Shown here piece after piece: positions 6,053 through 64,000 of a stretch of DNA of 64,000 nt. The DNA is taken from the NCBI GenBank assembly GCA_965262635.1, contig OZ253547.1:3644234-3708233 (forward strand). Reading direction: 5' to 3'. A program made the translations under genes and the position numbers. A model generated the notes under the pieces. The model saw only the letters and a list, made by a program, of their open reading frames with translations, was not told the DNA's origin and did not search any database. This DNA comes from Candidatus Versatilivorator sp. (GTDB taxonomy: Bacteria > Acidobacteriota > Terriglobia > Versatilivoradales > Versatilivoraceae). The first letter of the stretch is position 1, and each line of letters begins with the position of its first letter.

Positions 6053-7228
6053 GTGACCTCCTTAAAGCAGCATTTCAATCGATCGCTGGAAATACTCTTC
6101 GAACTGATCCGGATAGAATCGGTCAACCCTGCCCTGGTGTCTGGAGGGGCTGGAGAGCAAGCCATTGCCGAGTTTCTGTCCGGCTTCTTGAAAAGCGAGG
6201 GGATCCGCAGCGAATTACAGCAGGTCGCTCCGGGGCGATTCAATGTGGTAGCCGCGGTGCAAGGGTCGCGTCCCGGACCCAGGGTGCTCCTCAATGGACA
6301 CCTGGACACGGTGAGTATCGCCGGGATGAAGCAGCCCCTGGTTCCCGTACTCAAGGACGGAAGGGTCTATGGCAGAGGATCGCAGGACATGAAGGGCGGG
6401 CTGGCGGCAGCGGTTTCCGCGCTGCTGGCGCTTGCCCGGCGCAGGGACGACTGGCAAGGGGAGGTTGTGCTGGCCGCCGTGGCCGATGAGGAAGACTTAA
6501 GCCTGGGAACCACTTGGTTGCTGGAGCATTGGCCGAAGGAGAGACCCTTCGATTTCGCATTGGTGCTGGAACCGACCGATCTTCAGGTGGCCACGGCCCA
6601 CAAGGGATTTGCCTGGGTCGAGGTCACTACCTCCGGAAAGGCCGCCCACGGTAGCCGGCCGGCCGAGGGAGTGGATGCCATTCGCCTGATGGGTCAGATT
6701 CTGGGCCACCTGGACCGACTGGACCGAGACCTGCAGCGCCGTCCCCTTCACCCCCTTTTGGGATCGGGCTCGCTGCACGCTTCTCTGATCCAGGGCGGCC
6801 GCCAATGGAGCAGTTACCCGGACCGCTGCCACTTGAAATACGAGCGAAGGACGGTTCCGCCTGAAACCCGGGCGACCGTCGAAACTGAAATTCAACGGAT
6901 CCTGCGGGATTGCCGCCAACAGGATCGTCACTTCCAGGGGGAGGCCTCATGGGTCTGCTCCCGAGAACCCTTTGAGGCAGACCCTGACCAAGCCGTTCTG
7001 CAGCGATTCTACCGGACCGCCCGCTCCCACCGTCCCAAGCATGTCCGCTGGGGCTGCGTTTCATTCTGGACCGACGCCGCCCTGTTGGCGGCCGCCTCCA
7101 TCCCAACCCTGGTTTTCGGCCCTCGAGGAGCCGGGCTCCATTCCCTGGAAGAGCATGTTGTGGCTGAGGATCTGAGCGACTGCGCTGAGATCATCTTTCG
7201 CTTCGTGACTCAAGACTGCGCTAGCTAG
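6053..7228 (+). CDS. M20 family metallopeptidase (ArgE/DapE-like deacylase)
   Basis: M20 metal-binding motifs (LNGHLDTV, GRGSQDMKGG, EEDLS...); 391 aa typical for ArgE/DapE. Confidence 0.65.
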   Translation: MTSLKQHFNRSLEILFELIRIESVNPALVSGGAGEQAIAEFLSGFLKSEGIRSELQQVAPGRFNVVAAVQGSRPGPRVLLNGHLDTVSIAGMKQPLVPVLKDGRVYGRGSQDMKGGLAAAVSALLALARRRDDWQGEVVLAAVADEEDLSLGTTWLLEHWPKERPFDFALVLEPTDLQVATAHKGFAWVEVTTSGKAAHGSRPAEGVDAIRLMGQILGHLDRLDRDLQRRPLHPLLGSGSLHASLIQGGRQWSSYPDRCHLKYERRTVPPETRATVETEIQRILRDCRQQDRHFQGEASWVCSREPFEADPDQAVLQRFYRTARSHRPKHVRWGCVSFWTDAALLAAASIPTLVFGPRGAGLHSLEEHVVAEDLSDCAEIIFRFVTQDCAS

Positions 7229-47848: not shown

Positions 47849-50800
47849 GTGCCCGCCTCCAATCAACCCTACGTTCCCCTCTGGTGCAAGAGCAACTACT
47901 CCTTTCTGGAAGGGGCCAGCCATCCCGAGGAACTGGTCGATGCCTGCCGGCAGAACGGCATTCCCGCCCTGGCGCTCACCGACCGCCACGGGGTGTATGG
48001 ACTGGTCAGGGCTCACGTTCGCGCCCGCCAGTGCGGCATCCACTTGATCGTAGGGTCGCAGATCAGCCTTCGGGACGGACCTGAGATCCTGTTGCTGGTC
48101 CGGAACGAGCAAGGTTACCGCAATCTCTGCCGACTGCTGACCGACGGGCATCTGCGTTCCTCCAAGGGGAAGTGCAAGCTGGACTGGCAGGAGGTGTGCG
48201 GCTACAGTCGCGGTCTGATTGCTCTGTGGATCGGCCCGTCCGACCCCAAAGCTTCTCTGGAATCCGCCTCCGAACCCCTCCTGGAGCAGTTCAAAGCGGC
48301 ATTCGAAGACCGTCTCTACATCCTGCTGTCCAGACACCGACGGGCAGAGGAAGTCCTGCGGGAGATTCAACTGCGAAAGCTGGCGGACCGGTTCAGGCTC
48401 CCTACCGTGGCCGCCGTGGAGGTCCTCTACCACGCTCCCGAACGGCGCCGTCTGCAGGACGTTCTGACCTGTATCCGGGAAGGAGCGACCCTGACCACTG
48501 CCGGTCGGCTCATCCGGCCGAACGACCAGCACGCCCTGAAGAGCCCGGAGGATTTGGCGCGTCTCTTCAGCGACGATCCGGAGTCGGTCCAACGGACCCG
48601 GGAGGTCGCCTCCCTCTGTTCCTTTTCGCTGCAGGAACTGCGTTACCGCTATCCACTGGAGTGCCTGCCGGAAGGGAAGACCTCCAGCCAGCACCTGCGT
48701 GACCGGACCTTCCAGGGAGCCGCCCGCCGACTGGGCGGAAAGTTCCACAGCCTGATTCCACAATTGCGGAAGGAACTCGATCTCATCCGGGAGCTGGAGT
48801 ACGAAGGCTACTTTTTAACCATGCACGAGATCATCGAATACTGCCGCCGCCAAGACATCCTCTGCCAGGGCCGCGGGTCGGCCGCCAACTCGGCGGTCTG
48901 CTTTGCCCTGGGGATCACCAGCGTGGACCCGACCCAGGTGGACCTCCTCTTCGAGCGTTTTCTGTCCAGGGAGAGGGCCGAACCTCCGGATATCGATCTG
49001 GACATCGAGCACAACCGCCGGGAAGAGGTGATCCAGCATGTGTACGAAAAGTATGGGCGCGATCATGCCGCCATGGTGGCCAATGTGGTTCGTTACCGGC
49101 ATCGGTCCGCCATCCGCGAAGTGGGCAAGGTGCTGGGGGTTGCGGCAACCAGCCTGGATCGCTTGGCCAAGCTGGTGTCCCACGACCGCTGGAGCGGTGA
49201 GTTCATCCGCCAGGCCGGACTCGATCCCCAAAACCCGGCCCTGCTCCATCTGACCTCTCTGGTGGAAGAGATTCAGGATTTTCCCCGTCATCTCTCCATC
49301 CATCCCGGGGGCTTTCTGCTGGGTCATCGCCCCGTCCACGACCTGGTGCCGATCGAGAACGCCTCCATGCAGGGCAGAACGGTTATTCAGTGGGACAAGG
49401 AGGACGTGGACCAGGCAGGCCTGTTCAAGGTAGACCTGCTGGGACTGGGCGCCCTCACCCACCTGCACCTCTGCTTCGATCTCCTGAGGCGACACCGGCG
49501 ACAGAAGCTTTCCCTGGCTACCATCCCCAAGGGAGATCCCTCGACCTTTGAAATGGTCTGCCGCAGCGACACGGTGGGGGTGTTTCAGATCGAGAGCCGC
49601 GCCCAGATGGCCATGTTGGGGCGCCTCAAGCCGCGCAGCTACTACGACCTGGTGATCGAGATCAGCATTGTGCGCCCCGGACCCATCACCGGCGGCATGG
49701 TCCATCCCTATCTGCGGCGGCGCAACGGTCAGGAGGAGGTCGAGTACCCCCACCCCTGCCTCATTCCCGTCCTGAAGAAAACCCTGGGCATTCCTCTGTT
49801 TCAAGAACAGGTGATGCAACTGGCCATGGTGGCAGCCAACTACTCTCCCGGAGAGGCCGACCAGCTCCGGCGGGACATGGCGGCCTGGCGGAGTTCAGGT
49901 CGAATCGAGCGTCACCGGCAGCGGCTGGTCACCCGCATGGTGGCCAAGGGGATTCAGCAGGAGTTTGCCGAGCGTGTCTTCCAGCAGATCCGTGGATTCG
50001 GTGAATACGGCTTCCCTGAGAGCCATGCCGCCAGCTTTGCCCATATTGCCTATGCCACTGCCTACCTCAAATGCCACTATCCGGCGGAGTTTGTCTGCGC
50101 CCTGCTGAATGCCCAGCCGATGGGATTCTACTCGGCCGCCACCATCGTCAACGATGCCCGCCTCCATGGAATCGAGGTGAGGCCGGTCAGCATTCTCGAC
50201 AGCCACTGGGATTGTAGCCTGGTCGAAATTGAGGGAGTTCCAGGAGAACCCGCCGAGTTCGCGGTCCGCATGGGGCTGCGTTACGTCAGGGGACTGGGGC
50301 GGGGAGACTGGCACAGGCTGGCGGAAGCGGCTCGGCAAGCTCCCTTCCGCAACCTGCCGGACGTGGCCCGGAGAAGCCGGCTCCGCCAAGACAGGCTGGA
50401 AACTCTGGCCGAGGCCGGGGCCTTCGAGTGTTTCGGCCTGGACCGGCGAAGGGCTCTTTGGCAGATTCAGGGGTTGGCAACCGAACCCCAGCCCGTGCTG
50501 CCCTTGGACAGCCGCGACCCCTTGCCCCGATTCCCCTCCCTGAGCGGACTGGAAACCATCCTCTGGGATCATGAGGCCAGCGGCCACAGCGCCCGGGGCC
50601 ATCTCCTGAAACCGCTGCGCCCCGCTCTGGAAGCCCAGGGACTGCCCACCGCGCGCCAACTCAACCGGATGCCGGGCGGCCGCCGGGTCCGCTATGCCGG
50701 CATGGTCATCTGCCGCCAGCGGCCGGGGACCGCGGGGGGAGTCACCTTCATGACCTTGGAGGACGAGACGGGCTTCGTCAACCTGGTCATCTGGAAACAG

Positions 50801-50962
50801 ACCTTCGAGCGCTATTCCCTGCTGGCCAAGACACTTTCCTGCATGGGGGTCACCGGAAATCTGCAGGTGGCGGAAGGGGTCACCCACCTAGTGGTCCGGA
50901 AAATCTGGAAGCCGCAGTTGGAGAAGGGATCACTGCACCTGACGAGCCGGGACTTTCACTGA
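47849..50962 (+). CDS. dnaE2: error-prone DNA polymerase III alpha paralog DnaE2 (ImuC)
   Basis: 1037 aa; PHP domain N-terminus ([17 protein letters not shown]), Pol III alpha core, OB fold; the length is typical of DnaE2. Confidence 0.9.
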
Positions 50963-51136: not shown

Positions 51137-51418
51137 ATGGAAAAAGACGGTAGCAAAGCTGGAGGTATCCAAACCATCAAAGCGTCCGAGTTCAAGGCCA
51201 AGTGCCTGAAGCTGATGGACGAAGTCGCGGAGAGCGGCAACGAGATCGTGATCACCAAGAATGGGCGTCCGGTCTCGCGGCTGATTCCCTACCGAAATAA
51301 GCCGAAAGCCCCGTTCGGCCGTGACCGCCACAAGATTCGGATACTTGGTGACATCATCGAGCCTATCGACGTGGAATGGGAGGCTGAGGCCAATCCAGAC
51401 CGGGTATTGAATCCATGA
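51137..51418 (+). CDS. type II antitoxin, Phd/YefM family
   Basis: 93 aa; SEFKAKCLKLMDEVAESGNEIVITKNGRPVSRLIPY matches the Phd/YefM fold. Confidence 0.7.
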   Translation: MEKDGSKAGGIQTIKASEFKAKCLKLMDEVAESGNEIVITKNGRPVSRLIPYRNKPKAPFGRDRHKIRILGDIIEPIDVEWEAEANPDRVLNP

Positions 51419-51813
51419 TCCTGCTCGACACCCACGTCCTGGTCTGGCTGCTTTGCGATGACCGCAGGCTCGGCAAGCGGACCCATCAAGTCATAGACCG
51501 TTCCTGGGCCGCAGGCGAAGCAGCCGTATCCGCGGTCACGTTCTGGGAGGTCGCCATGTTGCACGACAAGGGGCGGCTGGCTTTGCTGACCGACATCGGC
51601 TCATGGCGCCTGAACTTGCTTGAAGAGGGTCTGGTCGAGATCGCCGTAGACGGCGAGGTGGGAATCCGGGCGGGCCTTTTGCCAAATCTGCATGACGACC
51701 CAGCCGACCGCCTGATCGTGGCCACTGCGCTGCAGGGTCACCAATTAGTGACCGCTGACCATCGGCTTCTCCAATGGCCCGGCCATTTGAGCCGGTTGCG
51801 AGCCACGGAGTGA
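51415..51813 (+). CDS. vapC: type II toxin VapC (PIN domain RNase)
   Basis: MILLDTHVLVW (first PIN Asp), FWEV (Glu), TADHRL (distal Asp); overlaps the antitoxin stop by 4 nt. Confidence 0.75.
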   Translation: MILLDTHVLVWLLCDDRRLGKRTHQVIDRSWAAGEAAVSAVTFWEVAMLHDKGRLALLTDIGSWRLNLLEEGLVEIAVDGEVGIRAGLLPNLHDDPADRLIVATALQGHQLVTADHRLLQWPGHLSRLRATE

Positions 51814-51997
51814 GCGGGGCGAAGGGATCGAACGAGCAAACGCTCACTGAGGCCACCAGTCCACCGATCGGTTACGGCATGCACGGGTAACCGACGGCGC
51901 CGTTACGCCTGCAGGGCGGCCCATCGAGGTAGGAAATCTGCTCCTGGCCGCCATGCGGCGCGGCAGGCTTCCCGAAGATGATGGACCGGAATTTGCG

Positions 51998-54697
51998 ATG
52001 ACCCAAGAGAAGATCACCCTCGCCCAACTCGAATCTTTCCTCTTCAAGGCCGCCGACATCCTGCGCGGCAAGATGGACGCCTCCGAGTTCAAGGAATTCA
52101 TCTTCGGAATGCTGTTCCTGAAGCGGCTCTCCGACGAGTTCGACCGCAAGCGCCAGCAGCTCCGCGATCAGGTCTTTGCCCACCTCAAGCACCAGCCCAA
52201 ACTACAGGCGGAACTGCTGGAAGAAAAGATCTCCTACGGCGAGACCTTCTTCGTGCCTGTCCGCGCCCGCTGGAACCAGGCATGGACGGACGAGAACGGT
52301 GACCAGGTCCCGGCCCTCAAGGACCTCAAGCACGATATCGGCAACATGCTCAACAAGGCCATTGCCGCGGTGGAAGACGAGAACGACTTCCTGGCCGGCG
52401 TGCTTAAAAGCAACATCGACTTCAACGCCGTCAAGGGAAAGACGAAAATCCCGGACCAGAAGTGGAAGGACCTGTTGGATCACTTCAACCAACCGCGCTT
52501 TGTCCTGGTCAACGACAACTTCGAGTTCCCCGACCTGCTGGGCGCAGCCTACGAGTACCTCATCAAATACTTCGCCGACAGCGCCGGCAAGAAAGGCGGC
52601 GAGTTCTACACGCCGGCGGAAGTGGTGCGCCTGCTGGTGCAGCTCACCAAACCTGAAGCAGGCAACGAGATCTACGACCCCACCGCCGGCTCCGGCGGCT
52701 TTCTCATCCAGTCCCACCAGTACGTCGAGGAACAGGGCCAGGACGCCAATGATCTATTCCTCTGCGGGCAGGATTCCAACGGGACCACCTGGTCCATCTG
52801 CAACATGAACATGATCCTCCACAATATCACCGGTTTCACCATCGAGAACGGAGACACGCTGGAGGACCCGCAGATCCTGAAGAACGGCCAGATCTGCAAG
52901 TTCGACCGGGTGCTGGCCAATCCCCCCTTTTCGCAGAACTACAGCCGCGCCAACATGACATTCACCAGTCGCTTCCGCGAGTGGTGCCCGGAAAGCGGCA
53001 AGAAGGCCGACCTCATGTTCGTCCAGCACATGCTGGCCAGCCTCAAGCCCGACGGCCATATGGCCACGGTGATGCCCCACGGCGTGCTCTTCCGCGGGGG
53101 CAAGGAAAAGCTCATCCGCGAACTGCTGATCGGCGATGACGTGGTCGAGGCCATCATCAGCCTGCCGCCCGGCCTCTTCTACGGCACCGGCATTCCGGCC
53201 TGCGTGCTGGTGTGCAACAAGAGCAAGCCCGACCCGCTGCGCGGCAAGGTGCTGTTCATCAATGCCGACCGCGAGTACGCCGAAGGCAAGAACCAGAACA
53301 AACTGCGCCCGGAAGATACCGAAAAGATTGATTTCGTCTTCACCCACAAACGTGAAATCCCCAAGTACAGCCGCCTGGTGGACAAGACCGAGATTGCCGA
53401 TGCCCACGACTACAACCTCAACATCCGCCGCTATGTGGACAACACCCCCGAACCGGAGCCGGAGGACGTGAGCGCCCACCTCATCGGCGGACTCCCGGAA
53501 GAAGAGGTGGAGGCCCGAGCCGGTGACTTCGACCGCTTCGGCATCCATCCCGACTCGCTGTTCCGGCCCCAACGCCCCGGCTACCTGGCTTTCTGCCAGA
53601 CCATCGAGGCCAAGCCCGCCATCAAGACCACGCTTGAATCCGCCCCTGCGCTCCGGCACACCCTCACCGCCCACTTCGAGGCCCTCGCAGCCTGGTGGAA
53701 GGTTGCCCGGGACGACTTTGCCCAACTGCAATACACACAGAAGACGGTGAAAAACGGCGTCAGGAAGATGCCCGAGGTGCGTCATGAACTGCTCGTCACC
53801 CTCAAAGACAAGTTGGTTCCCCAGAAGGTGCTGGACGAATTCAAGAGCGCCGGCGTCTTCGTGAACTGGTGGCAGCAGATCCGCTTCGATCTCAAAACGA
53901 TCGTCTCCATCGGCTGGCACCACAGCCTCGTCCCCGACGACTATCTGATCCGAGCCTTCTTTCAGGCCGAGGCAGACGCAATCGAGAGACTCGAAGCCAG
54001 TATCGGCCAAGGCCAGGGCGAGTTGGCGGAGGCCTTGGAAACCGCCCAGGAAGTCGCGGCCTATGAGCCCGACGAAGGCGAGAAGGTCACCGCGGCCGTC
54101 CTCAAGAAGGCACTGAAGTCCCTGATCGCTGACCTCAAGGACAGCCCCGGCGATTCGGCCAGGAAGGAGCTGGAGCGCCTCCGGGAGCAGGACAGGATTC
54201 TCAAGGCTATTGAAACGCGGATCAAGAAAGACAGGGCGGCGCTCAAGGACAAATCCGCCGAACTGAAGCTCAAGCTGCAATTCAAGCGCGTCGGCAGCCA
54301 AGACTACCAGGCCGAAACCCAGGCGCTCATCAAGCAGGTTGACACCCGGCTTGCCGACCTCGACCCCCAAAACAAGGCGGACAAGAAGAAGATCACGGCG
54401 CTGAACAACGACAAGAAGGCTCTGGTAGAGCGTATTGCCCGCACGGATATACTCTTGGCCCAGATCGGCGGGCAGCTATCCGAGGAGAAAGCCCGTGAAC
54501 TGATTCTGGCCAAGCTCTACGACATCGCCCACGCGGAGTTGAAGCGATATCTCAACGCAGAAAAACGCAGCTTGGTGCTCGGGATCGAAAATTTGTGGGA
54601 CAAGTACGCGGTAAGCAGCCGGGAGCTTGAGGTGGAACGGGATGCAACGCTGAAGACGCTGGATGGATATTTACAGGGTCTGGGTTACTTCGAATGA
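51998..54697 (+). CDS. hsdM: type I restriction-modification N6-adenine DNA methyltransferase subunit HsdM with long C-terminal coiled-coil extension
   Basis: FYTP (motif I region [11 protein letters not shown]), NPPF ([10 protein letters not shown]); N-terminal HsdM_N domain; ~350 extra C-terminal residues rich in heptad-like K/E repeats. Confidence 0.85.
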
Positions 54698-56049
54698 ACG
54701 CCAACTGGCCAACTTACAAATTAAGGGATATCGCCGATGTGCGCGTGAGCAATGTCGACAAGAAGACCAGCCATGCCGAAACAACAGTCAAGTTGTGCAA
54801 CTACATGGACGTTTACGCGAACGATTACGTGACCAAATCAATCGACTTCATGGCGGCGTCAGCAAGTAAGTCGGAGATCGAACGGTTCTGCCTTCAAGCA
54901 GGCGATGTCATTATCACAAAAGACTCAGAGACTCCGGACGACATCGGCGTGCCTGCGGTGGTAACTGACTCCATAGACGGATTGGTTTGCGGCTATCATC
55001 TGGCCCTTATCAGACCCCGGAGCGATATTGTCGATTCGATCTATTTGGCAAAGCAGTTATCTACTGCGCCGATCGCTCGCTACTTCGCCTTGAATGCGAG
55101 CGGGTCAACCCGCTTCGGACTTCCCATTAGCGCAATCGAGGACACTCGGATTCCGGTTGCTCCCAAACCGGAACAAACAAAGATTGCCGAGATACTCTCA
55201 ACGGTAGACCGTGCCATCGAGCAGACGAAAGCCTTGATCGCCAAACAGCAGCGCATCAAGACCAGCCTGATGCAAGACCTTCTCACCCGCGGCATCGACG
55301 AACACGGCAACCTCCGCTCTGAACAAACCCACCAGTTCAAAGACTCTCCCCTGGGATGGATTCCCATGGAGTGGGAACGTGGATATTTCGAGTCATGTAT
55401 CTCTGGAAGTCCCAAAAACGGGATTTATAAGCCGCAATCTGCATATGGTGAGCAAGGCGCACCCATTATTCGCATAGATGCGTTCGGTCACGGAGATAGA
55501 ATTAAAGCCCAATCATACAAAAGAGTCGTGCTGTCAAAGTCAGAAATCGACCAGTACAGGTTGAGAGAGGGCGAGATATTGATAAACCGAGTTAATAGCA
55601 TCCAGTATTTGGGTAAGACAGCCCTGGTGGAACACCTGTCGGAAGCGACTGTTTTTGAATCCAATATGATGAGGTTGACCATTGACCAGGGGCGAATGTT
55701 ACCGGACTTTGCTCTTCTACTCCTGACTGGTCTGGCAGCCTCCAGACACTTCTTGAGAAATGCAAAACTCGCAATTGCTCAAGCAAGCATTAATCAGCAT
55801 GATGTCATCTCGCTCCCGATACAACGCCCGCACCTTGAGGAGCAGCGCGCCATATGCGAACGCATAGCCTCGAATGCTGGTTCAATCAAGAATACGTTCT
55901 CAGGCTTAGAAAAACTGAATCGGGTCAAAACCGCCCTTATGCAAGACCTTCTCACCGGTAAACGCCGCGTAACTTCTTATGTCCCTACCTCAAGCAATCA
56001 GCCAGGCCAAGGACTTGAGTATCTGGCTGCACGAAAAGACAAACGATAG
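54694..56049 (+). CDS. hsdS: type I R-M specificity subunit HsdS (two target-recognition domains)
   Basis: 451 aa; two conserved spacer repeats ([14 protein letters not shown] central, [13 protein letters not shown]-terminal) separating two variable TRDs; ATGA overlap with hsdM. Confidence 0.85.
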
Positions 56050-56593
56050 AGGAATCTCCGATGACAGGCGAAGTCAAACGGGGTCAAGCCTTCTTCAACT
56101 CTCGTTAGATATAGCCGACGCGATCATCACTTTGTTGGAAAAGAATTTGCCGGACAATTTGCCGGGGCCGGCTTGGGCGCTTGCGAGACCTCTCTTCGAA
56201 AGTTACGTTCTTGGTATCTGGATATTGAAGTGTGCCTCCGATGAACAAGTCGATCACTTCCTCAATAATGGGCGGCGGCCGAAGTTTTCCAAACTATTGA
56301 AGGCAATAGACAATAAAGCGAAGCCTCATGCGGATTGGATTCGGGAGACCGAAAAGGCGAACATGCGCTACTTTCATGATTTTACCCACGGTGGAATTCA
56401 GCACGTCAGGCGTAGGATTACTGAAAACTCAGTGGAACCAAATTATCCGGAGCAAGAATTACAATACTTGGTCGGTCTCGGAGTTGAGGTGAGTATTCGT
56501 GTTGGTGTCGAGATTTTTTCGCTCATAAACGATCGAGTCGGGATCATGCAACTATATGAACAAGCACAGGTTTTTCCCAGACAGCCACTCTGA
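55979..56593 (+). CDS. hypothetical alpha-helical protein inserted after hsdS (start uncertain)
   Basis: ORF-track ATG overlaps hsdS by 70 nt; an in-frame TTG near 56132 just after hsdS stop is an alternative start (~150 aa); AT-rich relative to flanks; no family recognised. Confidence 0.35.
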   Translation: MSLPQAISQAKDLSIWLHEKTNDRGISDDRRSQTGSSLLQLSLDIADAIITLLEKNLPDNLPGPAWALARPLFESYVLGIWILKCASDEQVDHFLNNGRRPKFSKLLKAIDNKAKPHADWIRETEKANMRYFHDFTHGGIQHVRRRITENSVEPNYPEQELQYLVGLGVEVSIRVGVEIFSLINDRVGIMQLYEQAQVFPRQPL

Positions 56594-56710
56594 TGACCTA
56601 AACGAAATATGCGTTGGATGCCCAACCCGAGGCTTCACGGTGTTTGATACGGGGCTGGTCTTTCGGATGACTCGGCTGCGACAAGTTGTCCGCTCTGAGT
56701 AGAGGAGGAC

Positions 56711-57022
56711 ATGATGATTAGATGGTTTATTGATTGGCTGGTTTCGCTGTTTAAGGTAAAAGCAGTGGGAGTTCGAACCAATCAGATTTTGCGTGGAACT
56801 TACCCACTAGATGAAGGAATGCGCTCAAGGAGTTTGATATTAAATCCAGGTTCAGTACAAGAGGCTAGGCTGATATCTGGCTGGGGTGGGTCTCATGATT
56901 CCACAGATATCCCCTATGTGCAGGCTGGTGCTGTTTCGAGAATTAGGCTCACTACAGGGGAGGTGATGTGGGTTACAAGTTCCCCTGACGAACCCAAGCA
57001 TGTTTTGTCATGGCCCAATTAG
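56711..57022 (+). CDS. hypothetical protein
   Basis: 103 aa ORF in an AT-rich segment, GAGGAGGA RBS 5 nt upstream of ATG; no recognisable domain. Confidence 0.35.
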   Translation: MMIRWFIDWLVSLFKVKAVGVRTNQILRGTYPLDEGMRSRSLILNPGSVQEARLISGWGGSHDSTDIPYVQAGAVSRIRLTTGEVMWVTSSPDEPKHVLSWPN

Positions 57023-57233
57023 CCATTGTATTTGTCATCGACTCTTGTGCATCGAGGTCGTAGCTATTGATGAATGGGTATTCTGACTGGGATGGAAGGT
57101 CCTACTTGAATATCCCCCTCTCCCGATTCAAGAGAACGCTCAATGTGGATGGACTGTTTGATGTCATTGTTTACAGATTCGGCCAACCAATCCGGAATGT
57201 GTCAATAAATTTGAGACAGCTGAGTTCCCGAAA

Positions 57234-58235
57234 TTAAGCTACTTTCTTTGCCTCTGCAGGCGGATTGATCCACACCTTGTCCGGCGGTCCGGCGATCTGC
57301 CTGGGTCCCTTGACGAAACGCTCCGGGTGTTGTTGGTGAGCGCGATCCAGAGCCTGCTGACGTCGTTGGAGAACCGGGCCGGTTTGACCGTAATGGACCA
57401 TCGCCGGCGTGAGCCAGCTCAGGCCCGAATGGTAGTGGAGGTTGTTGTACCAATAGAAAAAGTCCCGGCAGAAGGCCTTGGCGTCCTGGATGGAACCGAA
57501 TCGTTCGGGGAAGTCGGGGCGGTACTTCAGGGTTTTGAACTGGGCTTCCGAGAACGGGTTGTCGTCGGACACCTGCGGCCGGGAGTGGGACTGGGTCACA
57601 CCCAAGTCCGACAGCAGCAGTGCCACCGCCTTCGACTTCATCGACGAGCCGCGGTCAGCGTGGAGAATCAGTTGACCGCGATCGATCCTTTGCCTGTCAC
57701 AGCTTTCACCAATCAACTTTTTAGCCAGAGTCGCCGATTCGCAATCGGCCACCATCCACCCCACCACTTGGCGGCTGAAGATGTCGAGGATCACGTAGAG
57801 GGAGAAGGAGGTCCACTTCCGGGGCCCCTTCAGCCGGGTGATATCCCAGGTCCAGACTTGGTTGGGGCCTGTTGCTAACAGTTCCGGCTTCCGGTAGACG
57901 GGATGGCGCCGTTGGTGGCGTCGTTCGCGCACTTCCTGATTCGCATCCAGAATCCGGTACATGGTGCGTACCGAGCACAAATAGCGGCCTTTATCCAGCA
58001 GGGCCGCACAGACCTGGGCGGGCGCCTGGTCCAGGAAGCGCTCGCTATGCAGCAGGTCGAGGACGGCTTGCCGCTCGGCGGCATTCAATGCCCGAGGTGA
58101 CCGTGGGCGGGCCCGCTCGGCACCGGGTGCGGCCCCCCGCTGCCGACGCCGGTACAGCGACGCCCGGGCAACCCCGAAGGCCCGGCACGCCGGTGCCGTC
58201 CCCAATTCGGTGGAGAACTTCTCGGCCGCTGTCAT
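57234..58235 (-). CDS. IS3-family transposase OrfB (DDE integrase core)
   Basis: rve domain blocks (WTWDITRL, LHADRGSSMKS, SDDNPFSEAQFKTLK); 333 aa. Confidence 0.85.
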   Translation of the reverse strand: MTAAEKFSTELGTAPACRAFGVARASLYRRRQRGAAPGAERARPRSPRALNAAERQAVLDLLHSERFLDQAPAQVCAALLDKGRYLCSVRTMYRILDANQEVRERRHQRRHPVYRKPELLATGPNQVWTWDITRLKGPRKWTSFSLYVILDIFSRQVVGWMVADCESATLAKKLIGESCDRQRIDRGQLILHADRGSSMKSKAVALLLSDLGVTQSHSRPQVSDDNPFSEAQFKTLKYRPDFPERFGSIQDAKAFCRDFFYWYNNLHYHSGLSWLTPAMVHYGQTGPVLQRRQQALDRAHQQHPERFVKGPRQIAGPPDKVWINPPAEAKKVA

Positions 58236-58726
58236 CAGTGGTTGCCTCCCTCGTCCGCGCTCTTCAGAGATATCCCCAGCAGCGTGGAGACTTTTTTTTG
58301 GATCTCGATGACCGTTTCCGTTTGCTCCAGCTTCCTGCGAAGCCGCCGCCTCTCCCGTTCCAGCTCAGCGATGCGCTGGTCTCGGGCGTCCTTCGGCCGG
58401 GCTTTCCGTCCTCGCTTCGGCGAACCCCTGCCCGACAGGACCCCGGCATCGTGTTGCCGTCGCCAAGCGCTCAAGTTCGAGCCATACAGACCCTCTCGGC
58501 GCAGTAATGCCCCCAGTTCGCCCGGCTGGCTGCACTGGTCCGCTTCCCGCACGATCCGGCGCTTGTAGGCGGCGCTGAACCGTCTCCGTGTCGCCTTGTC
58601 GCATACTTCCAGATCCGGTCTATCCTCATCCCGACCAGCCGCTTCGCCAGCCACTCCAGTCGCCCTACGGGCTCCTTCCGTGGCTGGCGATTCTTCGTTC
58701 TCCTTCTTTGTTTTGAGCACCAACAC
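58235..58726 (-). CDS. IS3-family transposase OrfA (HTH)
   Basis: 163 aa; HTH plus leucine-zipper-like region (IAELERERRRLRRKLEQ) typical of IS3/IS911 OrfA. Confidence 0.8.
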   Translation of the reverse strand: MLVLKTKKENEESPATEGARRATGVAGEAAGRDEDRPDLEVCDKATRRRFSAAYKRRIVREADQCSQPGELGALLRREGLYGSNLSAWRRQHDAGVLSGRGSPKRGRKARPKDARDQRIAELERERRRLRRKLEQTETVIEIQKKVSTLLGISLKSADEGGNH

Positions 58727-58808
58727 AGGTTGTCTCCCTTCCCGCCCTGTTGTTCACTAATATATGATCAGTCAGGTGTCTCACCTATATTGGCACAGAG
58801 GGTTCCGG

Positions 58809-59585
58809 CTACACGGACGATTCCGATTCAACGCCAAATAGCTGCCTCACGATGTCCGGAGCACGGGGTTCCTGTTTTGGGCCATGTTTGCGCAGACAAT
58901 CAGTCCAGGAGTTGAGATATTCGGAGAAAGTACTGTCCTTTCGAACGTCCCAGCAGTTCAACCAGCCGCAATCGCGCCAAAGGGCGGGGTTTTGGCTGAA
59001 GCTGCCTAGCAACGATACCGCCACGACACGATTGAGTTCCCGGCAGGTGGGGTTTTCCTCCATCAGGTGGATGTTCCGGTTAAGCCAACCGGGAAGATCG
59101 GATTGTGAGGGTATCGGGGTCTTCTCTTCGACCTCCTCCGCATATGACTGATGGTGCCTGGCGAATGCGGAAGCTTCGAAGACCTCGGACGGAGGATCCT
59201 CTTTCCAGTCCTCTGCCAGGGATCTCAGGACATGGAGGGAAGCCAGTTCGCAGAGGCTTTCCTCGAACCACTTGTGCTTGTGTTTCTTGTAGCTGTCGAA
59301 ATGAGTCAGGATGTGACAGAGTTCATGTGAAAACTGGTACACATACTGGCTCCAGTAGGTATCTGTCGCACTGAGAAAAACCTGGTATGGGCGCTTTTCG
59401 TACACGGTAAACGGATAGTCCCTGTTCCAGCGGGATACATGAACAGCCGCCTCAGGCGCCACTTCAAATGACCGGACCAGTACACGATGGGCCGACGAGA
59501 GGACTGCACGAATCGCGCTCAGGCTTGTCAGTCCCCAATTCCCGTTGATGATCGTCACGGCAGCCTCTGTGTTCCCCGGCGTCAT
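58809..59585 (-). CDS. HExxH-motif protein, putative gluzincin-type zinc metallopeptidase of unrecognised family
   Basis: 258 aa; FSHELCHILTH with downstream EESLCE about 18 residues later (HExxH...E spacing of gluzincins); ATGA overlap with the upstream ATPase gene, so the two are co-transcribed. Confidence 0.45.
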   Translation of the reverse strand: MTPGNTEAAVTIINGNWGLTSLSAIRAVLSSAHRVLVRSFEVAPEAAVHVSRWNRDYPFTVYEKRPYQVFLSATDTYWSQYVYQFSHELCHILTHFDSYKKHKHKWFEESLCELASLHVLRSLAEDWKEDPPSEVFEASAFARHHQSYAEEVEEKTPIPSQSDLPGWLNRNIHLMEENPTCRELNRVVAVSLLGSFSQNPALWRDCGWLNCWDVRKDSTFSEYLNSWTDCLRKHGPKQEPRAPDIVRQLFGVESESSV

Positions 59586-61159
59586 GAGATTTCTCCTCTA
59601 ACCTTCGGCGATACGAAGAGTCCGCCCAAGTCTCCTCGTCCATCGGGACTGCGAAGCATCTTCTCCAAGTCCGGCAAATCCCTGCAAATCCATCCGTCGG
59701 CGTCGAGCCTGGATCGCCTGTCACTGGGAAAACTCGGAGCAAAGAGCGCCAACTCGTGTTTCCAGTCCCGAAAACGGCTTCCCTTGCGGGTCGACAGAAA
59801 ATTCGCCACATGTTTCCGGAAACGCTTGAGGGATTCCCGGTCGTGGTTTCTTGCGGTTCTCTTGCAGGATCCAAAGCGCACCTTCCGGTTGCGTTCGTCT
59901 TGTGCAACCAAGTCAATCTCGATTGGTGGCTGGCCGCCTCGCGGTCGATTCCAATAGCCGTGAATCTGTTGCGTCATGGAAAAATCCCCGGTATCCAAGC
60001 GTGACGCCTCTTCGCACGCTTGGCGAACCAGCACCTCGAACGCGTGTCCTTCCAGTGTTCGGAGCCTGGAGAGAAGTCCTTTCACCAACCGGGACTCGGG
60101 AACCACGCGCATGTCTTGCCGGGTCTCCTTCAACACGGCCAACCAGGCCCGCAGAAACGGATCCGAGACGGCGTAGCGCGCATTCCTCGGTTTTCCTTCC
60201 GCGAAGACGGGAAACGACTTTTCGATGAGCCTCAGGTCTTTCACAAGAACTTCAAGATAAGCCCCCAAGGACGACAGCTCCGGAAGCCGTTCCAGCAATT
60301 CGGCATGGGAGCACGGTCCGTGCCTGGCCAGAGTGTGAAGAATGGCCAGATAGTTTCGGCGCAATTCGCCTCCGAGCAGTGCCTCGCCCTCCTGACTCAA
60401 CGGAGCGTTGCCGGAAAGGAAGAGCCTGTTGCACAACTCGGTTGCCCAATCGTCCCACCGGTCAATGGCGTCCAGCCCATCTTCCCTGGCAAACAATTCC
60501 CAGTACCTGGGCACACCGCCGAACAGCGTCCAAAGGGTCAGACGTCTTTGTGGATCGGTTGCACCATGTTTCCCGCTGACTTCAAAGATTGTCTTAAGAT
60601 CCCACGGCCCAAGCCTGATGTCGAAGGTGGTCCGCCCGAACAGTGGCGCCTTGCGGTCTTCAAGCAATGCTTCCATTTCCGTCTGGATGGAGCCAACGAC
60701 AATCAGTCCGCCTTTTCTATTGCTGCGGCTGAGCCGGTCCACTTCTGCCTGCAGCAGAGATGGGAAACCCTTGAGCGGCCCCTGGTAGCAGAACTGAAAT
60801 TCATCGATGACGACTATCGCTCCCCGGCTGCAGAGTGAGCCGATCACGCTCGCGACTCCTTCCAGGTCCCGCACGTCATCGAGCCCAACAATCTGTTGAT
60901 CTGGATTCCATCGTCGGGCAGCGCGCCTGAAAACGCTGGCGGTGTCCGAAACACTGCTGTCGGGCAGTTGAAACAATAGCGCCAGCCGCAAACTCGGATC
61001 GTCACTCCTGATTGTGGTGAGCACCTGGTTGATGAGGGCCGTCTTTCCTATCCGGCGTCGTCCCCGTATGGAACCGAAGAACCAGCGTCCCTTGCGCATA
61101 TGTTCGAGGAGTTGCCCTGCTTCTTCCCGACGACCGTAGAATGACCACTTGGCGCTCAT
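59582..61159 (-). CDS. AAA+ ATPase of the archaeal-ATPase type with C-terminal DUF234-like (restriction-endonuclease-like) domain
   Basis: 525 aa; Walker A GRRRIGKTA, Walker B IVVIDEFQ; C-terminal block IEIDLVAQDERNRKVRFGSCKRTA resembles DUF234; AT-rich divergent promoter region to the HigA-like gene. Confidence 0.65.
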   Translation of the reverse strand: MSAKWSFYGRREEAGQLLEHMRKGRWFFGSIRGRRRIGKTALINQVLTTIRSDDPSLRLALLFQLPDSSVSDTASVFRRAARRWNPDQQIVGLDDVRDLEGVASVIGSLCSRGAIVVIDEFQFCYQGPLKGFPSLLQAEVDRLSRSNRKGGLIVVGSIQTEMEALLEDRKAPLFGRTTFDIRLGPWDLKTIFEVSGKHGATDPQRRLTLWTLFGGVPRYWELFAREDGLDAIDRWDDWATELCNRLFLSGNAPLSQEGEALLGGELRRNYLAILHTLARHGPCSHAELLERLPELSSLGAYLEVLVKDLRLIEKSFPVFAEGKPRNARYAVSDPFLRAWLAVLKETRQDMRVVPESRLVKGLLSRLRTLEGHAFEVLVRQACEEASRLDTGDFSMTQQIHGYWNRPRGGQPPIEIDLVAQDERNRKVRFGSCKRTARNHDRESLKRFRKHVANFLSTRKGSRFRDWKHELALFAPSFPSDRRSRLDADGWICRDLPDLEKMLRSPDGRGDLGGLFVSPKVRGEIS

Positions 61160-61268
61160 GCCTATAGCATAATTTATGTTTTCTAATTGTCAATATCGTT
61201 AGAGAGTGGCATGCTTGCGAAGTCACGATCTAGAATTATCACAAGGTGTAAGCCCCAGGAGACAGGCA

Positions 61269-61523
61269 ATGACCCGAGTAAAGACGCATCCCGGCAGCGT
61301 GCTGCGGGCGGAGTTGGAGGCGAGAGGCATGAGCGCGAACCGGCTTGGGCTCGCCATCCGAGTTCCCGCCAACCGCATTACCGCCATCCTGCGTGGCCGA
61401 CGGGCGGTCACGGCCGAAACCGCGGTGCGCCTTGGCCGCTTTCTCGGAACAGGCCCCGCATTCTGGATGAATCTGCAAAGCGCATACGCGATCTCGGTCG
61501 TCGAGAACGCGAAAGTCGTGTGA
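61269..61523 (+). CDS. HigA-family XRE HTH protein (orphan antitoxin-like regulator)
   Basis: 84 aa from MTRVKTHPG; HPGSVLRAELEARGMSANRLGLAIRVPANRITAILRGRRAVTAETAVRLGRFLGTGPAFWMNLQ is the HigA/VapI signature; no toxin ORF immediately upstream. Confidence 0.65.
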   Translation: MTRVKTHPGSVLRAELEARGMSANRLGLAIRVPANRITAILRGRRAVTAETAVRLGRFLGTGPAFWMNLQSAYAISVVENAKVV

Positions 61524-61611
61524 TCGAAGGCGAGGTGCCGGCCGCCGTTTCGTGAGTGCGGGCGCTACGGGAGCGATGGCGATGAGTGTGGTTTCTTGTT
61601 GGGTGAGTTTA

Positions 61612-61690
61612 CGGAATATCGATGAACAGGATGGATCGGATTCTTTTTCTCTATCCTGAATATCCTGTTCATCCATGTTCAAAGATTAAA
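61612..61690. repeat. hairpin repeat, copy 1 (copy 2 at 62483-62555)
   Basis: Both copies share ATTCTTTTTCTCTATCCTGAATATCCTGT(T/C)CATCCATGTTCAAA; the 5' arms differ (GATGAACAGGAT vs ATGGATGGACAGGATA) but remain complementary to their own 3' arm, i.e. compensatory covariation; each follows the 3' end of an antitoxin gene. Confidence 0.6.
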
Positions 61691-61878
61691 ACCGCCGTTT
61701 CATAAGGCGACGCTGCCTAGAAATTCTTTCACAATATCGCGGTTGCCCGAGGCGATCTCTTCTTCCGCCAATTCCCGGTTTGCCCGCAACACGAGTTGTA
61801 CGGCCTCAATCAGATTCGCTTCAGCCTCTTCCAGAGTCTTACACCGCGGGCAGCGGTCTCCGCATCCCCAAAAAACAC

Positions 61879-61917
61879 TTGCAACATGACATGCCTTGAG
61901 GCATAACGTGTTGCATG
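61879..61917 (+). promoter_or_regulatory. imperfect palindromic operator/promoter upstream of higB
   Basis: TTGCAACATGACATGCC ... GGCATAACGTGTTGCATG (12/16 inverted match) including a TTGCAA -35-like hexamer; ~55 nt before the higB GTG. Confidence 0.4.
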
Positions 61918-61971
61918 AGGTTGACTCACAGAGGATTGAGACGGTTAGCCGAACAAGACGATGCCTGATCG

Positions 61972-62187
61972 GTGCCGCAATCTCTTGTTCGTCGTATCCG
62001 TCGCATCTTGACGGAATTGGATGCGGCGCAATCGGCTCAAGACATGAACTTGCCTGGCTACCGGCTGCACCCGCTGAAGGGCGCTAGACACGGGCAATGG
62101 AGTATTCGCATATCCGGTAACTGGCGCATTGTCTTTCGCTTCGAGAACGGCGAGGCGGTAGACGTTGACCTGGTTGATTACCACTAG
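61972..62187 (+). CDS. higB: HigB toxin (RelE/ParE superfamily), GTG start, short N-terminus
   Basis: C-terminal LPGYRLHPLKGARHGQWSIRISGNWRIVFRFENGEAVDVDLVDYH matches the HigB consensus; an upstream in-frame stop leaves only 71 aa. Confidence 0.75.
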   Translation: MPQSLVRRIRRILTELDAAQSAQDMNLPGYRLHPLKGARHGQWSIRISGNWRIVFRFENGEAVDVDLVDYH

Positions 62188-62198
62188 GAGAACCTGAG

Positions 62199-62459
62199 AT
62201 GACCATGATGAACCCGACACACCCGGGCGAAAGCGTCCGCAACTGCATCGAAGAATCCGGCTTGACGGTGACGGAGTGCGCCAAGCGGCTTGGCGTGACC
62301 CGGAACAACCTGTCAAGGTTGTTGAACGGGCGGATTGGGATTTCGGCTTCGGTGGCCCTGGGGTTGGAACGCATCGGTTGGAGCAACGCGGAGTTCTGGA
62401 TGAGATTGCAAGGAAACTACGCATTGGCGCAAGAGCGGCGAAGGCAAACGGCGGCTTGA
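62199..62459 (+). CDS. higA: HigA antitoxin (XRE HTH)
   Basis: 86 aa; HTH block LTVTECAKRLGVTRNNLSRLLNGR; 11 nt after higB. Confidence 0.75.
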   Translation: MTMMNPTHPGESVRNCIEESGLTVTECAKRLGVTRNNLSRLLNGRIGISASVALGLERIGWSNAEFWMRLQGNYALAQERRRQTAA

Positions 62460-62593
62460 TAGGCGCAGACCAACCCAAAGAAGGGAACATGGATGGACAG
62501 GATACATAGGATTCTTTTTCTCTATCCTGAATATCCTGTCCATCCATGTTCAAAAACTCCTAAACCCTTTGAGCCAGCCATCGCGGCGACAGG

Positions 62594-64000
62594 CATGAGA
62601 ACACAACCACTTCGCATGGACGAGCGCAACCACGTCGAGAAACCGTTCCTGGATCAACTCGCCGGGCTTGGCTGGAAGATCCTCGACCTCGACAATCAGC
62701 AACTCCCCACCGACAGCCATCGTGGGAGCTTCAACGAGGTGGTGATGCTGCCCGTGCTGCGCGAGCGGCTCCAGGTTATCAATCCCTGGTTGGAGAATGA
62801 CCAGATCGACGAAGTCGTCAAACAACTCACCGCCAGCTTTCCGGGCACGGGGCTTTTGGAGAACAATCGGCACGTCTTCAATCTGCTGCTGGAGAACACC
62901 AGCCTCGGCCAGAACCGGCAAACAGGCGAGAGAAGCCCGACCGTCCATTTCGTTGATTTCAAGAATCGCGAGAAAAACAGCTTCATCGCCGTCTGTCAAT
63001 TCAAGGTCCGAGTCCTTGGAACCGAGCACCACATCATTCCCGACATCGTGCTCTTCCTGAACGGCCTGCCGGTGGTGGCGATCGAGTGCAAGTCCCCCAA
63101 GGTGAAGGACGCCATCCCGGAGGCCATCGATCAGCTTCTGCGCTACAGCGAGCAACGCGGCGCCAGCGGCGAGGGGAGCGCGCCCCTCTTCTACTACAAC
63201 CAGTTCGTGGTGGCCACCTGCCGGCAACAAGCCAAGTTCGGAACCATCACCACCCACAGCGAAAAGTATTTCTACCGCTGGGCGGACCCCTATCCCCGGA
63301 CGGTGGATGATCTGGAACATGGGGCGGGAGGCCCGAACGATCAGAAGCGCCTGGTGGCGGGGATGCTCGATCCCGGCAATCTGCTCGACCTGATTCGCAC
63401 CTTCACGCTGTTCACCGTCAACGAAGAGGGCGAGACCATCAAGATGGTGGGGCGTTACCAGCAGTTCCGCGCAGTGAAGCTGGCGGTGAAGCGTTTGGTG
63501 GAAGGCCAGAGTCCACGCCAGCGCAGCGGCATCGTCTGGCACACCCAGGGATCGGGCAAATCGTTAACCATGATGTTCATGGTCCGAGAGATGTACCGCC
63601 GCGCCGCGCTCGCCAATTGGAAGGTGGTATTCGTCACCGACCGCACCCAGCTCGAACAGCAGCTTTCCGAAACCAGCGGGAACATCGGCTTTACGGTGAA
63701 AGTGGCGGACAGCATCCAAAGGCTCAAGGAGTTGCTTCGAGCCGACACCTCGGATCTGGTCATGGCCATGATCCACAAGTTTCGCGAGGTGGATCTCGAA
63801 GAGACCTTTCCTGAACTCAACGCCAGCCCCCGCATTCTGGTCATGACCGACGAGGCCCATCGTTCCCAGTACAAGCTGCTGGGCGCCAACCTCGACAGGG
63901 CGATTCCCAACGCCACCAGGATTGGTTACACCGGCACGCCGATCGACAAGACCGAAAAGGTGTTCGGCGACTATATCGACAAGACAAGTACACCCTGCGC
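62594..64000 (+). CDS. hsdR: type I restriction enzyme R subunit HsdR, N-terminal ~469 aa (runs off the window end)
   Basis: Not in the ORF track because no stop occurs before the window end; my translation gives HsdR_N nuclease region, helicase motif I HTQGSGKSLTM, motif II MTDEAHRSQY (DEAH), motif III GYTGTP. Confidence 0.8.

Follow-up and report, generated by a model that had tools for sequence, protein, structure and literature searches.

The type I restriction-modification (R-M) locus of Candidatus Versatilivorator sp. raises the question of whether its hsdR gene still belongs with hsdM and hsdS, and of how the genes lying between hsdS and hsdR came to be there. The locus was analysed in a window of 64,000 nt from contig OZ253547.1 (assembly GCA_965262635.1). 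All three hsd genes are coded on the plus strand, with 6.5 kb between hsdS and hsdR. An earlier note on this DNA described hsdM-hsdS and hsdR at this distance, separated by AT-rich unknown genes, an insertion sequence (IS) of the IS3 family, an operon for an HExxH protein and an ATPase, and HigA-type genes, and took the whole interval for a single cargo insertion. Its coordinates and gene list were found to be right, with every listed element present, but the single insertion had to be given up. The best explanation overall, with a probability of about 0.75, is one cognate type I locus at whose hsdS/hsdR junction cargo accumulated in layers, and which is decaying in this strain.

Proteins of the window were searched against Pfam, NCBIfam, and PADLOC family models, and the matches of the core and interval genes are strong and beyond chance. 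The hsdM gene encodes the long form of the methylase (about 900 aa) at positions 51998–54697 of the plus strand. Its open reading frame (ORF) opens at 51953, but the start at 51998 is the probable one because relatives align from residue 16. HsdM matches PF02384 (N6_Mtase, 3.7e-101), PF12161 (HsdM_N, 1.3e-27), TIGR00497 (247.5 bits, cutoff 242.75), and PADLOC MTase_I (1e-273), and its methylase core is intact, with DPTAGSGGF and NPPF motifs present. A C-terminal extension of about 400 aa (residues ~500–914) resembles a coiled coil and is outside the Pfam domains but inside the PADLOC type I methylase models. The hsdS gene (54694–56049, plus strand) encodes 451 aa with two target-recognition domains. 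PF01420 (Methylase_S) matches it in two stretches and PADLOC Specificity_I spans residues 4–426 at 1e-79; the gene also holds an internal 45-nt conserved-region repeat. Homology of hsdS with relatives stops near 55967, and the HsdS tail past LLTGKRRV runs into cargo DNA. The 5' part of hsdR occupies 62595–64000 of the plus strand. The gene runs off the window end and for this reason was missing from the ORF list; its 468 readable codons match HSDR_N (3.5e-38), SWI2_SNF2 (6e-56), and TIGR00348 (314 bits).

Whether this hsdR is the partner of the neighbouring hsdMS was decided in a family survey. One genome per species was scanned, which gave 80 loci with the long HsdM family (59–91% identity), and hsdR was counted as paired when located downstream, on the same strand, and within 10 kb. 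The same HsdR family is downstream in 55 of the 80 loci, with 67–90% identity over the readable part. A ygjP-like gene (PF01863, M48-type) follows within a few nt in 42 of the 47 loci with complete hsdR; in the remaining five, either no sequence is left past hsdR or the gene was overlooked by the script. Among these five is L085, on the reverse strand, a contig of the same strain whose identity with the window is 99.99% over 14 kb and which extends past the window end. The gene order there is hsdR, ygjP (4697–5380 of L085), and polyprenyl synthase. No second hsdMS, which the earlier note had named as the sign of a different system, was present downstream of hsdR in L085 or in the close relatives L081, L082, and L084, where ygjP is followed by housekeeping genes. 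Because of the pairing in 55 loci and the lack of a second hsdMS downstream, hsdR is identified as the cognate partner of the neighbouring hsdMS, and the earlier note was correct in treating the three genes as one system. An origin of hsdR from a second type I system is highly improbable; nothing was found to support it beyond the 6.5 kb that separate hsdR from hsdS and the improbable co-transcription of the two, and both the co-occurrence of the two families and the genes after hsdR speak against it. The locus would be chromosomal and belong to a widespread family in which the genes run hsdM-hsdS-hsdR-ygjP. In this type I family the ygjP-like gene effectively amounts to a fourth component, as it does in the RRDM island of enteropathogenic Escherichia coli (EPEC).

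The same survey showed how often the junction is occupied. The gap between hsdS and hsdR is shorter than 300 nt in about 12 loci and 0.4–7.3 kb long in 41 loci, and roughly three quarters of the informative family loci hold something at this place. The 41 gapped loci contain 113 ORFs, among them GmrSD (12), Schlafen/HATPase_c_4 (8), reverse transcriptases (7), PIN (5), OLD/AAA_15 with UvrD (4), and SIR2 with HerA (3), as well as Gabija-like genes. GmrSD, Schlafen proteins, reverse transcriptases, SIR2/HerA, and others of this set are recognised defence genes. Embedded ORFs of at least 150 aa in other loci of the family are nearly all co-directional with the hsd genes (74 of 78). The hsdS/hsdR junction of this family thus appears to be a recurrent landing site for other genes. 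Thirteen loci (L002, L006, L010, L018, L020, L024, L027, L031, L039, L045, L050, L059, and L061) have 2.2–3.9 kb from the end of hsdM to the end of hsdS, compared with the usual ~1.25 kb, and therefore cargo also between hsdM and hsdS.

Close relatives of the locus, Terriglobia and 'Versatilivorator' metagenome-assembled genomes L001–L003 and L081–L084 with 87–97% DNA identity, were compared with the window, as the earlier note had proposed. The blocks common to them are hsdM, the conserved parts of hsdS, the stretch 58802–61530 with the genes for the HExxH protein, the ATPase, and the first HigA-type protein, and hsdR. About 2.7 kb of the interval, with genes for the HExxH protein, the ATPase (designated S27 after its PADLOC model PDC-S27), and the helix-turn-helix (HTH) protein, is thus shared across the clade. 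The stretch from hsdS to the HExxH gene is a variable slot with different content in every relative: HicAB in L081, a pentapeptide-FRG protein in L082, a C5 methylase (Dcm) and a HATPase_c_3 protein in L084, and other content in L001–L003. The second Hig module behaves as a separate segment: L002 is without it and has 190 nt between the first HigA-type gene and hsdR. L021 (Binatia), a more distant relative, has no ATPase operon, and its HigA-type gene, 90% identical, is located about 60 nt upstream of hsdR. For this HigA-type gene and its downstream spacer, the DNA identity between the window and L021 is 83%, compared with 75–77% for hsdM or hsdR.

Judged by these alignments, the interval consists of at least four layers of different age and is not one insertion. 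The proposal of the earlier note, in which one 6.5-kb insertion separated the parts of an intact hsdMSR operon, is very unlikely to hold, even though contiguous hsdS-hsdR loci do occur in the family and the low-GC block at 55400–57200 appears foreign. Such an insertion disagrees with the sharing of 58802–61530 alone among the relatives, with the slot beside hsdS that differs in each of them, with the absence of the higBA segment from L002 and the HTH gene standing alone before hsdR in L021, and with the strain-specific IS3. Position 58802 was at one time taken for a fixed boundary common to seven relatives; this was dropped, since the relatives share a further 25–70 nt leftward and it is IS3 that causes the abrupt break seen in the window. 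In the layered reading, the site would have been filled in this Terriglobia-like lineage first by the HigA-type HTH gene directly before hsdR, then by the antisense two-gene operon for PDC-S27 and the HExxH metalloprotein. The third layer would be the variable slot beside hsdS, here with PDC-S52, orf103 with a truncated partner gene, and IS3, and the fourth a hicB'-higB-higA segment between two 71-nt hairpin repeats. L083 has two tandem copies of the HExxH-S27-HTH block, the first with intact hsdR-ygjP and the second with hsdR fragments of 56 and 151 aa only, and this arrangement suggests duplication and decay at this site.

The gene attributed to the first layer is a lone HigA-family HTH gene of 84 aa (61269–61523, plus strand, TIGR02607 77.8 bits), divergent from S27. 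No higB accompanies it. The earlier note counted two HigA-type modules, and two HigA-family genes are indeed present, but as modules they fall short: the first has no higB, and the second has a dead one. The second consists of a higB pseudogene (61915–62187, plus strand) with TGA at codon 18 and an intact higA antitoxin gene with HigA-family match (62199–62459, plus strand, 86 aa). A remnant of a hicB-like (UPF0150) antitoxin gene is located before them on the minus strand (61690–61842) and is 91.5% identical to positions 6232–6384 of L081, where a gene was called. The hicB'-higB-higA segment is bracketed by two direct 71-nt palindromic repeats, 90% identical, each just after a higA-type gene. 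Copy 1 (61613–61683) has a predicted hairpin of -30 kcal/mol (z -4), and copy 2 (62484–62554), which ends 40 nt before the ATG of hsdR, one of -42 kcal/mol (z -8). A search of the window and of 171 loci located the repeat at no other place than this locus, both in the window and in relatives; L002, which is without the higBA segment, gave no match to it. The repeats may be the footprint of segment movement, or a transcript-end or stabilising structure before hsdR. The hairpin was also tried as an Rfam family; only miRNA-precursor models far below the threshold were obtained, a generic hairpin effect, and the idea was rejected.

In the variable slot, the gene next to hsdS (55979–56593, plus strand) shares 71 nt with the 3' end of hsdS and encodes a DUF6988/DUF5677 protein recognized as PADLOC candidate PDC-S52 (3.9e-18). 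It is a strain-specific cargo, and an identical 204-aa protein is on record; homologues with 58% identity lie outside R-M systems. The predicted structure is a bundle of alpha helices only, for which the fold search gave nothing significant, the HEPN matches being weak. The next gene, orf103 (56711–57022, plus strand, 103 aa), is a rare conserved small ORF with eight homologue clusters (61–98% identity). Both genes are in DNA of 46–50% GC, compared with ~60% in the flanks. At 57070–57197 of the plus strand there is a 5' stub of about 43 codons (tblastn E 1.6e-16, 57–70% identity) of the gene that follows orf103 homologues elsewhere. Full-length homologues of the stub have 195–304 aa and no known domain, and in L169, L170, and L171 they always stand after orf103 homologues. 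The gene orf103 and its follower appear to be an uncharacterised two-gene cassette, which is cut here by IS3. An association of orf103 with S52 was ruled out, as orf103 travels with a different downstream gene, the one that IS3 cut. NCBIfam has no model for the S52, orf103, HExxH, or S27 proteins.

The IS3-family element is 1600 bp long (57198–58797, minus strand), with orfA at 58726–58235 and orfB at 58235–57234. Its transposase matches NF033516 with 182 bits (cutoff 160) and rve with 5.5e-19, and the terminal inverted repeats of 28 nt, TG-initiated, are at 57198 and 58797. The element is absent from all relatives except L085. The remainder of the stub gene is absent from the window, and since only ~43 codons of it are left, an IS-associated deletion is implied that removed the rest and reached just past the stop codon of the HExxH gene. 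The flanks GGAA and GAGG show no clean target-site duplication of 3–4 bp, which fits such a deletion.

When hsdR was completed past the window through L085, as the earlier note had advised, it proved to be frameshifted and followed by ygjP. A tandem 5-bp duplication (ACAAG twice, 63979–63988) shifts the frame after K463, and the stop codon is 12 codons past the frameshift, just beyond the window (continuation in L085, 7160–7120, reverse strand). Relatives read ATCGACAAGTACACC at this site and encode 1057 aa. An intact HsdR is not encoded in this strain, only the N-terminal 463 residues with HSDR_N and SWI2_SNF2. The second lesion is in higB: a C-to-T change at 61966 has replaced the CGA of relatives with TGA at codon 18. 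This leaves a dead toxin gene beside an intact antitoxin gene. With hsdR frameshifted, higB knocked out, and a cargo gene truncated by IS3, the locus as assembled is decaying in this strain. Because hsdM and hsdS are intact and hsdR is frameshifted, the phenotype is likely to be methylation without restriction. A split or interrupted hsdR was recorded in four other loci of the family (L010, L016, L050, and L062).

Counting against this picture of decay, the evidence for the hsdR frameshift comes from two long-read assemblies, of which one has 4x coverage. The hsdR frameshift and the higB stop could then be assembly errors in a system that is fully active. In keeping with this, the sources are apparently long-read metagenome assemblies, and L085, the one at 4x coverage, carries a further indel, private to this contig, by which hsdM is split. 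Against this, both the window and L085 have the 5-bp tandem duplication, which is of a kind other than a homopolymer error, is absent from the close relatives L002, L082, and L084, and is the only coding indel relative to L082 in 5.2 kb. The change in higB is a substitution. Errors throughout, with an active system behind them, are quite unlikely, and an artefact is an unlikely source of the hsdR lesion.

The earlier note also asked whether hsdR is still co-expressed with hsdMS. Read-through from hsdS into hsdR is unlikely because the S27-HExxH operon is antisense. From the HigA-type gene to hsdR, all genes of every relative point in the same direction, and only ~30 nt before the hsdR start are conserved among relatives, which suggests that hsdR is read from the promoter region of the HigA-type gene. 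Its transcription would be separate from that of hsdMS; separate transcription units for hsdMS and hsdR are normal for EcoKI-type systems. The promoter region is shared divergently with a sigma-70-like site TTGACA-16-TATGCT noted directly upstream of S27 on the minus strand (61166–61193), a consensus match only. A promoter scan of the region weighs against relying on such sites, as consensus matches were overall no better than in shuffled sequence. The palindrome CATAATTTATG (61168–61178) falls within the spacer of the promoter-like site, flanked by its -35 and -10 hexamers, and in the 109-nt divergent region between S27 and the HigA-type gene it is a possible candidate operator. The question of co-expression is largely moot, as hsdR is frameshifted after codon 463.

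The antisense operon is the main embedded element. Its first gene (59582–61159, minus strand) encodes S27, 525 aa with ATPase_2/DUF234 domains, which matches PADLOC model PDLC04985 in full length at 5.2e-154 (residues 3–502 aligned to model positions 2–483 of 484). The P-loop ATPase part has Walker A GRRRIGKT and Walker B VVIDEFQ, and the C-terminal DUF234 or PD-(D/E)xK-like domain has the motif EIDLV...GSCKR conserved across homologues. The S27 family counts 839 cluster representatives at E 1e-10 or better. The second gene (58809–59585, minus strand) overlaps S27 by 4 nt and encodes a protein of 258 aa, a putative gluzincin-type metalloprotein; the two genes are predicted to be translationally coupled. 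In 47 sequences of the HExxH family, the motif QFSHELCH...WFEE has H87, E88, and E108 invariant and H91 and E109 nearly so. The HExxH protein has 318 homologues and no sequence match in Pfam, NCBIfam, or PDB; PDB sequence searches with S27 and the HExxH profile gave nothing meaningful. Its AlphaFold2 model (pLDDT 90) found only weak matches in Foldseek, namely to M61 and M1 aminopeptidase catalytic domains (E 0.11, probability 0.84; TM 0.54 for IRAP).

The S27-HExxH pair recurs at 54–60% identity in L087, a defence island unrelated to this one, and also in L091 and L094. P0129, a protein of 793 aa in the representative library, is a natural fusion of a PDC-S27-type ATPase with an HExxH-family domain (44% identity, E 2e-71). 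S27-HExxH would represent an independent mobile defence candidate, an ATP-dependent nuclease-type effector with a metalloprotein partner. It is also proposed, as a tentative and rather doubtful idea, that PDC-S27 in this clade is a two-component effector with a gluzincin-like HExxH partner, and that its position antisense to the HigA-type repressor heading the hsdR unit makes it co-regulated with the restriction subunit or a back-up on R-M failure. Several observations argue against such roles. The nuclease motif of S27 has Ser where an acidic residue is expected, and HExxH is degenerate in the P0129 fusion, where it is replaced by AQQVCH, which questions the need for catalysis. An S27 homologue with 49% identity stands beside a type II system without an HExxH partner, and HExxH homologues with 31–42% identity are in non-defence contexts (sulfatase, DUF1501, peptidase, etc.). 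The pair is therefore not obligatory. In PADLOC, PDC-S27 and PDC-S52 are both no more than candidates. The idea of a defence-specific HExxH family was rejected because of the non-defence neighbours.

The S27-HExxH genes with the HigA-type HTH gene could instead be an accessory that guards or regulates this particular type I system, in the way PrrC is kept latent by EcoprrI. Across the clade the HExxH-S27-HTH module keeps its fixed place beside hsdR, the HTH part is better conserved than the hsd genes in the comparison of the window with L021 given above, and the divergent S27 and HTH genes share the 109-nt control region, all of which would suit such an accessory. It is unlikely nonetheless, as the S27-HExxH pair of L087 stands apart from type I systems, S27 alone adjoins a type II system, the other loci of the pair (L087, L091, and L094) are without the HTH gene, and S27 has no PrrC match in PADLOC. 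In the PADLOC scan of all interval proteins, only PDC-S27, PDC-S01, PDC-S52, and a marginal RmrA were recognized, and no PrrC. The preferred view of the pair remains that of an independent mobile candidate, and with PDC-S52 and PDC-S27 both called, the interval does hold the defence candidates that the earlier note had expected there.

On the other side of the R-M locus, a toxin-antitoxin (TA) pair of Phd/YefM-PIN (VapBC) type is located directly upstream of hsdM (51137–51813) and is conserved in close relatives. It sits between a dnaE2-like polymerase gene (47849–50962) and the R-M locus.

By a published rule, defence genes gather at the hsdS/hsdR junction of type I systems, and the locus is a well-resolved natural example of this. 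Both build-up and erosion of such a site can be seen in it, with cargo layers of different age and strain-by-strain replacement beside hsdS, and also the loss of a restriction subunit while the methylase is kept. For this strain it would be a mistake to annotate the locus as an active type I system. The practical value is modest, and lies in candidates for phage-defence assays: the PDC-S27 and HExxH pair with its natural fusion, PDC-S52, and the small orf103 cassette.

Among known systems, the PrrC anticodon nuclease in the EcoprrI type I locus is the classical ATPase-nuclease embedded in R-M, and the earlier note's reference to prrC-type precedents is apt. Like PrrC, S27 is of the ATPase-nuclease type and is encoded inside a type I R-M locus. 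Unlike PrrC, it matches the PDC-S27 and PDC-S01 models only, has ATPase_2 and DUF234 domains, and is antisense between hsdS and hsdR; latency control by the R-M complex is without support here. PrrC is almost exclusively embedded (Payne et al. 2024, bioRxiv 10.1101/2024.01.29.577857). According to the same study, embedded genes are frequent in type I R-M, BREX, and DISARM systems, and they were the source of the PDC models; two cargo genes between hsdS and hsdR, those of PDC-S52 and PDC-S27, match such models here. As in the loci of that study, hsd core genes of one strand enclose the extra genes. Unlike in those loci, the main embedded operon is antisense and the cargo is multi-layered and includes an IS, and pseudogenes are present (hsdR is frameshifted), whereas systems with pseudogenes were filtered out in that study.

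The RRDM island of EPEC has the order RptR-hsdM-hsdS-DarTG2-hsdR-M48 peptidase, and its hsdS/hsdR site was called a likely recombination hotspot (Zhang et al. 2025, PMC12255303). Both loci have the backbone of hsdM-hsdS, TA or defence cargo, hsdR, and an M48/YgjP-like gene, with PF01863 right after hsdR in L085. They differ in that there is no DarTG here, that before hsdM, where EPEC has RptR, the Phd/PIN pair was seen and no RptR-like gene, and that the small regulator, the HigA-type HTH protein, is coded before hsdR and not before hsdM. PDC-S27 itself is described as a single-gene candidate awaiting validation, an ATPase fused to PD-(D/E)xK (PMC12988326). The S27 protein agrees with the PADLOC definition in its full-length match and in the same ATPase and nuclease-like architecture, and departs from the single-gene definition in that here, and in the clade at ≥47% identity, it is coupled to the HExxH protein and is once fused with it. 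Cargo between hsdS and hsdR is an already documented kind of arrangement; particular to this locus are the antisense main embedded operon, the multi-layer structure, the coupling of S27 with HExxH, and the decayed state.

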